A stretch of DNA of 28,285 nucleotides, from IMG/VR virus record IMGVR_UViG_2850761752_000007; one strand, given 5' to 3'. The stretch comes from a virus. Lineage: Duplodnaviria > Heunggongvirae > Uroviricota > Caudoviricetes. Made by a program: the position numbers. Shown in pieces: positions 24,780-27,700 of this stretch (its first letter is position 1; each line of letters starts with the position of its first letter).

Positions 24780-27700
24780 GTCAGAGTCTTTCAGTCTGCG
24801 ATGATGGGAAATCCCGGAGTGACTGAAAGACGTTTAAGTTATGAATGATCGCCTTTTTTTGCAAAATTGCTGTGCAGAAATACTAACCTTCGGGCGTGCG
24901 ATCATTCATAAGCACTCTGCTTTTATTCCGATTAACTGTGGGTGGTTTGTTGGATAGAGTGCTTTCCTTACTGTATATATCGTTTCGCCCGCTTTTGCGT
25001 TTTTTTCTTTTCAAATCCCTTTCATTTCTCAGTGTAAAACTACGCCATCCGTTATTTGCGGAGGTGAGGCTATGAAATCCATGGACAAAATTTCAACGGG
25101 CATTGCCTACGGCACCTCCGCCGGCAGTGCCGGCTACTGGTTTTTGCAGTGGTTGGATCAGGTCAGTCCATCACAGTGGGCTGCGATTGGTGTGCTGGGA
25201 AGTCTGCTTCTGGGGCTTCTGACTTATCTGACGAATCTGTATTTCAAAATAAGAGAAGATTGAGGTAGCCTGAGTTTAACGGACACTCCTTCCTGAAATA
25301 GAATGGCATCAGAAGGAGCTAATAATGAGCAGAAAAAACCAACGTTACTCTAAAGAGTTCAAAGCCGAAGCTGTCAGAACGGTTCTTGAAAATCAACTTT
25401 CGATCAGTGAAGGCGCTTCCCGATTATCCCTTCCTGAAGGCACTTTAGGACAATGGGTTACCGCCGCCAGAAAAGGGCTCGGTACTCCTGGTTCCCGCAC
25501 GGTGGCTGAACTGGAATCTGAAATTCTGCAACTGCGTAAGGCGTTAAATGAAGCTCGCCTTGAGCGAGATATATTAAAAAAGCAACAGCGTATTTTGCAC
25601 AGGAGTCGCTGAAAAATACGCGTTAATCGAACAATGGCGACAACAATTTCCCATTGAAGCGATGTGTCAGGTATTTGGTGTATCCAGGAGCGGTTATTAC
25701 AACTGGGTACAGCATGAACCCTCAGACAGAAAACAAAGTGATGAGCGGCTAAAACTGGAGATTAAGGTGGCACATATCCGCACTCGCGAAACATATGGAA
25801 CCCGGCGGCTCCAGACGGAGCTGGCAGAGAATGGCATCATCGTTGGTCGTGACCGACTGGCACGTCTTCGTAAGGAGCTAAGGCTACGCTGTAAGCAGAA
25901 ACGCAAGTTCAGAGCGACTACGAACCCGAACCACAATCTGCCAGTTGCGCCAAATCTGCTGAACCAGACGTTCGCTCCTACAGCACCAAATCAGGTCTGG
26001 GTGGCGGACCTGACGTATGTTGCCACACAGGAGGGATGGTTGTACCTCGCTGGCATCAAAGATGTTTATACGTGCGAAATTGTCGGCTACGCCATGGGAG
26101 AGCGCATGACAAAAGAGCTGACAGGTAAAGCCCTGTTTATGGCGCTCAGGAGCCAGCGCCCACCTGCCGGGCTAATCCACCACTCTGATCGAGGTTCACA
26201 GTACTGCGCATACGATTACCGGGTCATACAGGAGCAGTCTGGTCTGAAAACATCAATGTCGCGTAAAGGTCACTGTTACGACAACGCTCCGATGGAAAGC
26301 TTCTGGGGAACGCTGAAAAATGAGAGCCTGAGCCACTATCATTTTAATAACCGGGATGAAGCCATCTCAGTAATACGGGAATACATTGAGATTTTCTACA
26401 ATCGTCAGCGTCGTCACTCTCGTCTGGGGAATATCTCCCCGGCAGCCTTCAGGGAAAAATATCATCAGATGGCTGCTTAAAAAAAGAACAAATGGTAGTG
26501 TCCGCTATTGCCAGTACACCTCAGGCAGACCATCAGTCATACCGGGATTAAAAAATGGCTGTGGAGAATCAGAAAAATTCTCCAGCAAAAAGGTGACCCG
26601 GATTTAATACAATGTGATTACCATCTCTGCAATAAACAGTTTTTACCTGAAAAAGCTTTTACTGGCGAGCTTATTTATATGCATGGAAACATGATTGCCA
26701 GAAAGAAACGAAAATATTGCGGTGCAGCTTGTGCCGAAAAAGACAAGATGGCACACGAACTTTAATTAACTGAATATTCGAAACTGAATTTATGCCAGCA
26801 ATGGGGTAATGCTGCCAACTTACTGATTTAGTGTATGATGGTGATTTTAAGGTGCTTGCGTGGCTTCCATTTCCATCAGATGTCCTTCCTGCTCCGCTAC
26901 TGAAGGCGTGGTGCGTAACGGCAAAAGCACTGCCGGACATCAGCGCTATCTCTGCTCTCATTGCCGTAAAACATGGCAACTACAGTTCACTTACACCGCC
27001 TCTCAGCCCGGTACGCACCAGAAAATCATTGATATGGCCATGAATGGCGTCGGATGTCGCGCCAGTGCACGCATTATGGGCGTTGGCCTCAACACGGTTT
27101 TACGTCACTTAAAAAACTCAGGCCGCAGTCGGTAACCTCGCGCATACAACCGGGCAGTGATGTGATTGTCTGCGCTGAAATGGACGAACAGTGGGGCTAC
27201 GTCGGTGCTAAATCACGTCAGCGCTGGCTGTTTTACGCGTATGACAGGATACGGAGGACGGTTGTGGCGCACGTCTTCGGTGAACGCACTCTGGCCACAC
27301 TGGAGCGTCTTCTGAGCCTGCTGTCGGCCTTTGAGGTCGTGGTATGGATGACGGATGGCTGGCCGCTGTATGAATCACGCCTGAAGGGAAAGCTGCACGT
27401 TATCAGCAAGCGTTACACTCAGCGCATTGAGCGACATAATCTGAATCTGAGACAACATCTGGCAAGGCTGGGACGGAAGTCACTGTCGTTCTCAAAATCG
27501 GTGGAGCTGCATGACAAGGTCATCGGGCATTATCTGAACATAAAACACTATCAGTAAGTTGGAGTCATTACCTGGAATCGGAAGAGACAAAAGAATTGCA
27601 GTTAATGAGGCTATTGCGGCAAATATGGAATTATTATCCACGCAACATATAAGCTTACTGGATAGAATAAAAGGTAATAGCGTAACATTATTCTGCGAGC

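Follow-up and report, generated by a model that had tools for sequence, protein, structure and literature searches.

What lies between the tRNA genes and the lysis genes of a lambdoid prophage when that interval codes for no protein? The question is raised by the Caudoviricetes record IMGVR_UViG_2850761752_000007 of IMG/VR, a stretch of 28,285 nt (hereafter, the window) in which 292 nt separate the end of a tRNA-Gly gene at 24779, as placed by ARAGORN, from the ATG of a holin gene at 25072. A first-pass annotation, made from the sequence alone, had put this gap at about 290 bp, had pointed in it to an 11-bp hairpin and a 14-bp perfect inverted repeat, and had taken the whole for the standard moron slot of a lambdoid late operon, here empty. 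The measured length agrees with this description and a repeat finder placed both repeats exactly as given there. The slot is not empty: its larger part very probably specifies a conserved structured RNA, at a fixed distance from the tRNAs, with a promoter-like motif upstream and a terminator downstream.

A three-domain fold directly 3' of tRNA-Gly

Positions 24777-24972 encode an RNA fold of ~190 nt, in three hairpin domains called HP1, HP2 and HP3 (Table 1). Folding of the plus strand gave a minimum free energy of -92.2 kcal/mol against -71.1 ± 4.7 kcal/mol for dinucleotide shuffles, of which none out of 200 was as good (z = -4.5); the minus strand reached a z of -2.1 only. The 11-bp inverted repeat is formed by 24786-24796 and 24821-24831 and the 14-bp one by 24839-24852 and 24898-24911; a third, of 9 bp, was found at 24910-24918 / 24956-24964.

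Several parts of the fold hardly vary among relatives. The inner hairpin of HP2 has an invariant 9-nt loop, AAAUUGCUG, and a 17-mer of the same domain, TTTGCAAAATTGCTGTG, is common to all relatives used. In the inner helix of HP3 the 3' strand, GGGUGGUUUGUUGGAU, is nearly invariant and its 5' partner varies by way of G·U pairs. The internal loop of HP1, i.e. GAUGA opposite GA (apex 24805-24818) flanked by CUGC/GUG and UGGG/CCCG, is almost invariant in 21 variants, the 3' GA being changed to UA in two of them; the apical loop is variable both in sequence and in length. A kink-turn is built of a canonical helix, a 3-nt bulge, tandem sheared G·A pairs and then a non-canonical helix. The HP1 pattern CUGC-GAU-GA-UGGG opposite CCCG-GA-GUG would presumably fit the consensus of kink-turns or of box C/D motifs.

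Covariation, strand bias and coding capacity

The consensus structure was derived with RNAalifold from an alignment of 25 diverse copies, 72-100% identical (alignment A1), and comprises 59 pairs in seven helices. Standard pairs are present in 97.5% of the 1468 cells of the paired columns, a value that drops to 39-49% in controls with partners slid by 1-3 columns. Double-sided changes were found at 10 pairs and in 87 cells (shuffle mean, 36.6 cells); neither this cell count nor the covariation score was reached in any of 500 shuffles. The number of pairs with a double change is by itself not significant, as 190 of the 500 shuffles reach 10. Compensatory changes occur in HP1 (helices 1-2) at pairs 11-54 and 12-53, next to an A-U/G-U alternation at pair 17-48, in four outer-stem pairs of HP2 (helices 3-5) and at three pairs of HP3 (helices 6-7), there in at least three different states. 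The outer stem of HP3 exists in at least four states: CUCU/AGAG, CUCC/GGAG, UCUC/GAGG and CCUU/GAGG.

The two strands behave differently: G·U pairs fill 192 cells of the consensus structure on the plus strand, whereas the minus strand has 11 of them and 218 mismatches. It follows that the target of selection is an RNA, read in the same direction as the tRNAs and late genes, and not duplex DNA. Pairing that is maintained through compensatory and G·U-compatible changes, better than in slid and shuffled controls and on one strand, is the general mark by which a structured RNA is recognised, and the element bears this mark.

These data also bear on the possibility that the inverted repeats are a DNA-level site for protein binding or recombination, or the neutral scar of a cargo gene lost from an empty moron slot, the latter having been put forward in the first-pass annotation. 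In its favour, the late leader shows strong mosaicism, recombination joints lie at the 3' end of the tRNA, and morons do insert in this slot (PMC4104026). However, G·U pairs confined to one strand and compensatory changes that keep the pairing mean selection on RNA, no protein family is matched in any frame, and the sequence is 95-99% conserved in more than 500 genomes and recognisable at 72-80% identity in other genera. We therefore hold either version to be very improbable, and both to be contradicted by the strand-specific G·U pattern.

A small protein was considered as well, and rejected. The gap ORFs (open reading frames) measure only 38, 43 and 59 amino acids and have no Pfam or PHROGs match, so that the earlier statement that no ORF is present was essentially right. 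Indels of 1-2 nt between relatives interrupt every frame; they fall in loops (columns 33, 78-79, 112, 121 and 147), which excludes a conserved reading frame. The region 3' of HP3 is, besides, replaced in other clades. Nor does the element align to annotated genes in its relatives: RefSeq has no annotation at the matching positions in the 90 records listed, which include 60 from the 526 matching E. coli genomes, and a hypothetical ORF is placed on it by two automatically annotated phage records only.

Linkage to the tRNAs

The element was found in ~110 contexts. The large majority of them have a tRNA on the 5' side, as a rule Gly-TCC, with a fixed distance of 77-82 nt from its end to the HP2 anchor, or of 21-23 nt where HP1 is absent, and this linkage holds while the sequence downstream of the element varies. 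With a linker of 6 nt (GUYARA or GUUUAA in relatives) and a fixed tRNA distance in most contexts, the element occupies the position of a tRNA-operon trailer, presumably co-transcribed with the tRNAs. The linker is a likely endonucleolytic cut site, which would free at once the tRNA 3' end and the 5' end of the trailer.

A sigma-70-like motif precedes the tRNAs in the window (the promoter scan reports it at 24430-24459), and the pattern TTGCNN-17-TAT(T/C)AT recurs 9-10 nt before the first tRNA in 42 distinct contexts where the DNA further upstream is unrelated. Whether the leader tRNAs of lambdoid phages derive from the late transcript or from a promoter of their own is still unsettled (PMC8022706). 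Between tRNA-Gly and the element, the promoter scan reported no promoter-like site.

On the other side, nearly all relatives have an intrinsic terminator at most 20-30 nt 3' of HP3. In the E. coli clade it reads GCCCGC-UUUU-GCGGGC, in the other clade CCUCGCUUCGGCGAGG in the corresponding position; Us follow in both, and the other clade often has a second terminator behind. The 3' arm (24997-25002) exists in four variants of equal length: GCGGGC (n = 24, predicted hairpin energy of -13.7 kcal/mol), GCGGGT (n = 21, -11.5 kcal/mol), GCGGTT (n = 24, -6.6 kcal/mol) and GCGTTT, the type of the window (n = 4, -3.3 kcal/mol). Each step in this series gives a shorter stem and a longer U-tract, from 6 bp with UUUUCUUUU in the strongest form of the relatives to 3 bp with U7CU4 in the window, where the terminator scan gave no site. 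The series could mean that read-through into the lysis genes is tuned by degrees, or else that the terminator is simply decaying. As for the earlier suggestion that the flagged hairpins are tRNA 3'-processing or terminator signals, functions of terminator and trailer do appear to be involved, but the terminator is a separate hairpin and not one of those two.

Judged from gene order, the interval is the late-operon leader slot of a lambdoid prophage, between Q and the tRNAs on one side and the holin on the other. This assignment, which upholds the moron slot of the first-pass annotation, is made because of the intact prophage of E. coli CFSAN029787, where the order is Q, terminator, four tRNAs, an unannotated gap 100% identical to that of the window, class II holin, lysozyme and spanin; phages vB_EcoS-689R5 and PhiR47_1 have the same layout. 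The supposed homology with the toxin slot of Shiga toxin (Stx) phages did not hold up: records of Stx-converting phages share the first two tRNAs only, and not the gap. Reread in this way, tRNA cluster, predicted promoter, trailing RNA and terminator form one cassette. As far as its parts can be recognised from their sequence, it has the anatomy of an autonomous unit, a putative moron in Hendrix's sense as used in PMC4104026.

Table 1. Elements recognised from the tR'-like terminator to the holin gene (window coordinates)
Feature	Positions	Strand	Remarks
tR'-like intrinsic terminator	24359..24380	+	CCCGC-TTTAT-GCGGG and T-run, read from sequence; first prophage sequence after the upstream insertion sequence
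Sigma-70-like promoter	24431..24459	+	TTGCAG-17 nt-TATTAT, 9 nt 5' of the first tRNA
Four tRNA genes	24469..24779	+	Met-type CAT, Arg-TCT, Thr-TGT, Gly-TCC (ARAGORN; Rfam tRNA 56-70 bits)
Linker	24780..24785	+	GUCAGA, A/U-rich, single-stranded; unpaired in the consensus; between tRNA CCA end and HP1
HP1	24786..24831	+	11-bp basal stem, one bulged U and 2 pairs, asymmetric internal loop, 4-bp apical helix, variable 3-4-nt loop
HP2	24839..24911	+	15-bp outer stem around inner hairpin 24856-24863 / 24873-24880 and mini-hairpin 24887-24894
HP3	24912..24962	+	8-bp outer stem and 9-bp inner helix
Decayed intrinsic terminator	24987..25011	+	GCCCGC-TTTT-GCGttt and T-run; ancestral 3' arm GCGGGC
Holin 5' untranslated region with ribosome-binding site	25026..25071	+	ribosome-binding site GGAGGTGAGG (25060-25069); part of the lysis module, not of the RNA module
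Class II (S21-type, phage-21-type) holin	25072..25263	+	PF04971, E = 1.8e-33; PHROG holin families

Distribution

The full gap is present in 530 of 5426 complete E. coli genomes and its structured part in 526 of the 5426; these copies are always chromosomal and mostly 95-99% identical. In IMG/VR, two conserved words used as queries led to ~170 loci, among which 60 distinct cores were counted, again 72-100% identical. The covariance model that we built from the comparison (R1) was applied after one scan of species-representative genomes and revealed full-length copies in Enterobacter hormaechei, Phytobacter ursingii, Yokenella regensburgei, Citrobacter sedlakii, E. coli and S. flexneri; outside the Enterobacteriaceae the same scan gave only chance matches to the search word. 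Phage HK639 has a 75%-identical copy, placed after tRNA-Asn and a tRNA-Gly remnant. Among the 90 matches listed, there is no strain with a published transcriptome.

Comparison with known RNAs

A cmscan of 24200-25400 against Rfam 15 (E ≤ 1) returned the four tRNAs, antisense artefacts of these and some weak matches 5' of them, and nothing on the element. A scan of 20 related loci at the Rfam gathering thresholds detected STnc100 beside the element and no family on it; the families left unmatched there or in the window include STnc100 (RF02076), AgvB (RF02702), AsxR (RF02703), Esr41, isrK, rtT and T-box. In the literature, of which our coverage was incomplete, we found no description of an RNA at this site.

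The neighbourhood with STnc100 takes several forms. In HK639 the STnc100 gene comes right after the terminator of the element (52.6 bits for a gathering threshold of 47) and ends at the next annotated terminator; it also adjoins the element, in varying order, in three related loci (L069, L150 and L075). In one of these, L075, an insertion with a 38-codon hydrophobic ORF replaces tRNA-Gly and HP1, while HP2, HP3 and the terminator are kept and are followed by STnc100. In these phages the late leader is thus pieced together from tRNAs, small ORFs and RNA modules that each end in a terminator. That of HK639 (L008, 2305-3138) is a succession of modules each closed by an annotated terminator: tR', tRNA-Asn, the tRNA-Gly remnant, the element, STnc100 and a further, unassigned segment of ~160 nt. 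The small ORF of L075 (MGIWKIALILTASLIAGVIIYIDVISDLIADANFLHLP; 4520-4640, minus strand of the locus) stands directly before HP2, a position that recalls the DUF3927 genes before PasD in strain E2348/69.

STnc100, PasD1 and PasD2 are among the closest in general character, each being a sense-strand RNA of ~170-210 nt in the late leader, between Q and holin, with an intrinsic terminator as its end. PasA and PasC, both antisense, and the sense-strand PasD1 adjoin the holin-lysozyme operon, and PasD is related to STnc100 (bioRxiv 10.64898/2026.05.13.724894). PasD lies ~400 bp upstream of a class II holin and after a DUF3927 gene, whereas the element follows a tRNA, and neither sequence nor covariance models reveal any similarity of STnc100 or PasD to the element. 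Homology to a Pas small RNA (sRNA) of enteropathogenic E. coli E2348/69 (NC_011601.1) was rejected: blastn at word size 7 against the PasA-D loci, with the coordinates of PMC8550237 (table S6), matched the holin coding region only, and R1 matched none of them. The PasB probe has 13 nt in common with HP1, but PasB sits between tail genes.

The moron slot downstream of pR' in prophages of enterohaemorrhagic E. coli holds convergent sRNA pairs, one strand of which is sense to the late operon; this is the late-leader slot of AgvB and AsxR (PMC4104026). The latter two share with the element their non-coding nature and their place 3' of pR' in lambdoid prophages. They differ from it in size (51-60 nt, with a shared 3' region of ~42 nt) and in arrangement, AsxR, one member of a convergent pair, being antisense to the late, stx2 transcript; the element has ~190 nt, lies on the sense strand, folds into three domains and matches neither family.

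Two tRNA-operon trailers provide another comparison. One of them is the rtT RNA of the tyrT operon. The other, 3'ETS-leuZ, is the trailer of the glyW-cysT-leuZ operon and sponges RyhB and RybB (PMC8383071). Like them, the element is 3' of the last tRNA of an operon and would be freed by tRNA processing. They differ from it in being chromosomal, shorter or derived from repeats, and in having an unrelated sequence; their release and action in trans have been demonstrated, and those of the element are presumed. No sRNA complementary to the element was identified.

GOLLD and ROOL are large structured RNAs that occur in prophages close to tRNAs, with which they may be co-transcribed (PMC5737381). 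The element resembles them as a structured non-coding RNA of unknown function near tRNA genes; they are 3-4 times larger, come from other phyla, have multi-junction pseudoknotted folds and gave no match in the Rfam scan of the window. Phage 21 has the same holin family and holin 5' untranslated region, tRNAs in its late leader, and a hairpin with a T-run between tRNAs and holin. Its interval from tRNA to S21 is nonetheless different: 119 nt with a single long hairpin and no R1 match, the similarity to the window starting ~30-45 nt before the ATG.

Three further candidates were discarded. Mimicry of GcvB had been considered for the shared GUCUGCGAU, UUUGCAA and G/U-rich run, but the local alignment score of 18 is that of chance (shuffle mean, 18.2). 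A T-box-like tRNA sensor was suggested by GGGUGGU in HP3; no Rfam T-box match was obtained, and the terminators are not conserved partners of HP3. For an antitermination site of the nut, boxA or put type, inspection by eye gave no convincing match, and the intact relatives have a Q protein.

Possible functions of the RNA

The reading that we favour is that of a tRNA-operon trailer RNA which acts in trans; we put the probability of this full model at about one half. The element is of a known kind, that of prophage late-leader sRNAs and tRNA-operon trailers, and is itself in no Rfam 15 family; it is probably one of the small regulatory RNAs that prophages maintain in this position. According to the model, the RNA would be transcribed together with the tRNAs: in lysogens the cassette promoter would be used, and in the lytic cycle of prophages that have Q and pR', transcription would start at pR' and be antiterminated by Q. 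A cut in the A/U-rich linker, maturing the 3' end of tRNA-Gly, would free it; it would end at the terminator, persist as a stable non-coding RNA and act in trans, with the invariant AAAUUGCUG, GGGUGGUUUGUUGGAU and GAUGA/GA as possible contact sites for another RNA or a protein. The terminator might at the same time keep constitutive transcription of the cassette out of the lysis genes. The invariant loop AAAUUGCUG could serve as the seed of an Hfq-dependent sRNA. A terminator and U-tail of the type seen in Hfq sRNAs is present in relatives (weak in the window). STnc100, a known Hfq-binding sRNA, occupies the same slot and orientation in related phages, sometimes right beside the element.

A number of points weigh against this model. 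The RNA is far more structured than a typical Hfq sRNA, and its most invariant bases are partly paired, with no obvious free seed. It has no promoter of its own directly 5', so that its release depends on tRNA processing. The terminator is almost lost in the window and in the intact CFSAN029787 prophage; given an active promoter, this argues that the RNA can do there without a discrete 3' end. Much of the covariation goes back to a single deep divergence, that of the E. coli clade from all other copies, so that the independent events are fewer than the cell counts suggest. Data on expression, on 5' and 3' ends and on Hfq or ProQ binding were looked for and none were found for this RNA, and no target was found for it.

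The hairpins might instead act in cis, as a processing or stability element of the late transcript that marks the separation, by RNase E or RNase III, of the tRNA precursors from the lysis mRNA and has no function in trans. HP1 would then be either a 5'-terminal stem-loop that protects the lysis mRNA or a 3' cap that protects the tRNA precursor; in E. coli mRNA decay, a stem-loop near the 5' end does protect an mRNA. HP1 begins 6 nt after the CCA end, the element always stands between tRNAs and lysis genes, and phage 21, too, has a strong hairpin and a T-run between its tRNAs and S21. Yet terminators, and in some phages the whole STnc100 gene, separate the element from the lysis genes, so that in most cases the lysis mRNA does not begin with it. 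Generic protective hairpins, moreover, have no need of loops and internal loops that stay invariant across 72-100% identity, and the linkage tracks the tRNAs and not the holin type. We regard action in cis alone as the main rival, possible but not probable. That the RNA serves the biology of the tRNAs in its cassette is more doubtful: it would bind a protein, for instance through the k-turn-like GAUGA/GA, so as to protect, modify or deliver the phage tRNAs, or be a decoy for host defences that target tRNAs. This would agree with the tight linkage to the tRNA 3' end, with the nearly invariant internal loop that resembles a k-turn or box C/D, with the hypervariable anticodon loop of a neighbouring tRNA and with the precedent of GOLLD and ROOL near prophage tRNAs (PMC5737381). 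On the other hand, HP2 and HP3 are found after a small ORF, with no adjacent tRNA, in L075 and in a further locus, L010, and there is no evidence for a partner protein. To our knowledge, E. coli has no k-turn-binding protein of the L7Ae type, which also speaks against such a role.

A bolder variant, to which we give an equally low weight, would see here a new class of structured phage RNA encoded with tRNA clusters, a small enterobacterial counterpart of GOLLD and ROOL and not an ordinary base-pairing sRNA. The k-turn-like part of HP1 and the invariant loops of HP2 and HP3 would recruit a host or phage factor, e.g. to shield tRNAs from anticodon nucleases or to couple tRNA supply to the lysis decision. 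If it is true that the RNA is functionally tied to the tRNAs, the element would make E. coli a tractable system in which to study why structured RNAs and phage tRNA genes occur together.

Whichever of its functions applies, the element adds to the late-leader slot, on strong comparative evidence, an RNA that is outside all Rfam 15 families. About 10% of complete E. coli genomes carry it, as do Shigella and four or more further genera of enterobacteria. Prophage late-leader sRNAs (AgvB, AsxR, PasD and STnc100) rewire host regulation and virulence in pathogenic E. coli. The comparison also yields, with R1, a ready covariance model.

The prophage remnant and its surroundings

The window matches a lambdoid prophage over 24369-25259 only, with insertion sequence (IS) elements flanking both sides; 24369 is also where the homology to the CFSAN029787 prophage begins, just 3' of its Q gene and terminator. 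The same IS junctions are present in Shigella flexneri SFBU1023 and in an ECMA0423 genome that bears the label E. coli (comparison with loci L186 and L183), so that the window probably derives from Shigella. The window copy has lost Q, pR' and the 3' part of the holin gene through these elements, and the tRNA-RNA cassette is the sole unit that remains intact in the IS-bounded remnant. The C-terminus of the holin is cut by the insertion, 63 codons being left; the prophage homology stops at 25259 and is followed by the IS. Similarity to phage 21, SfI and lambda hybrids starts at ~25026-25041, so that the final 30-45 nt of the gap are to be counted with the holin module.

Crowding by IS elements is visible elsewhere in the window, e.g. 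at 22716-24340 and 25264-27557. From their ORFs we take the repeated copies at 23435-24132 and 26860-27557 to be InsA/InsB of an IS1-type element, and the element at 25325-26480, with near-identical copies at 16961-18117 and 19525-20681, to be a member of the IS3 family.

Further observations concern the tRNAs and the prophage type. The Met-type CAT tRNA is annotated as Ile in RefSeq at the identical locus. The second tRNA (24547-24623) has a constant acceptor, D-arm and anticodon stem among relatives, and an anticodon loop that differs from one to the other: the anticodon is mostly Lys-TTT, elsewhere Arg-TCT (as in the window), Phe-AAA/GAA or the ochre-suppressor-like TTA, and ARAGORN failed to read several of the loops. 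The impression is of a tRNA whose anticodon loop is diversifying. In the CFSAN029787 prophage (L003, 360-547), upstream of a Rha-family regulator, Rfam isrK (63.6 bits) lies beside a C4 antisense RNA (83.4 bits); this prophage type thus has known regulatory RNAs in its early region too.

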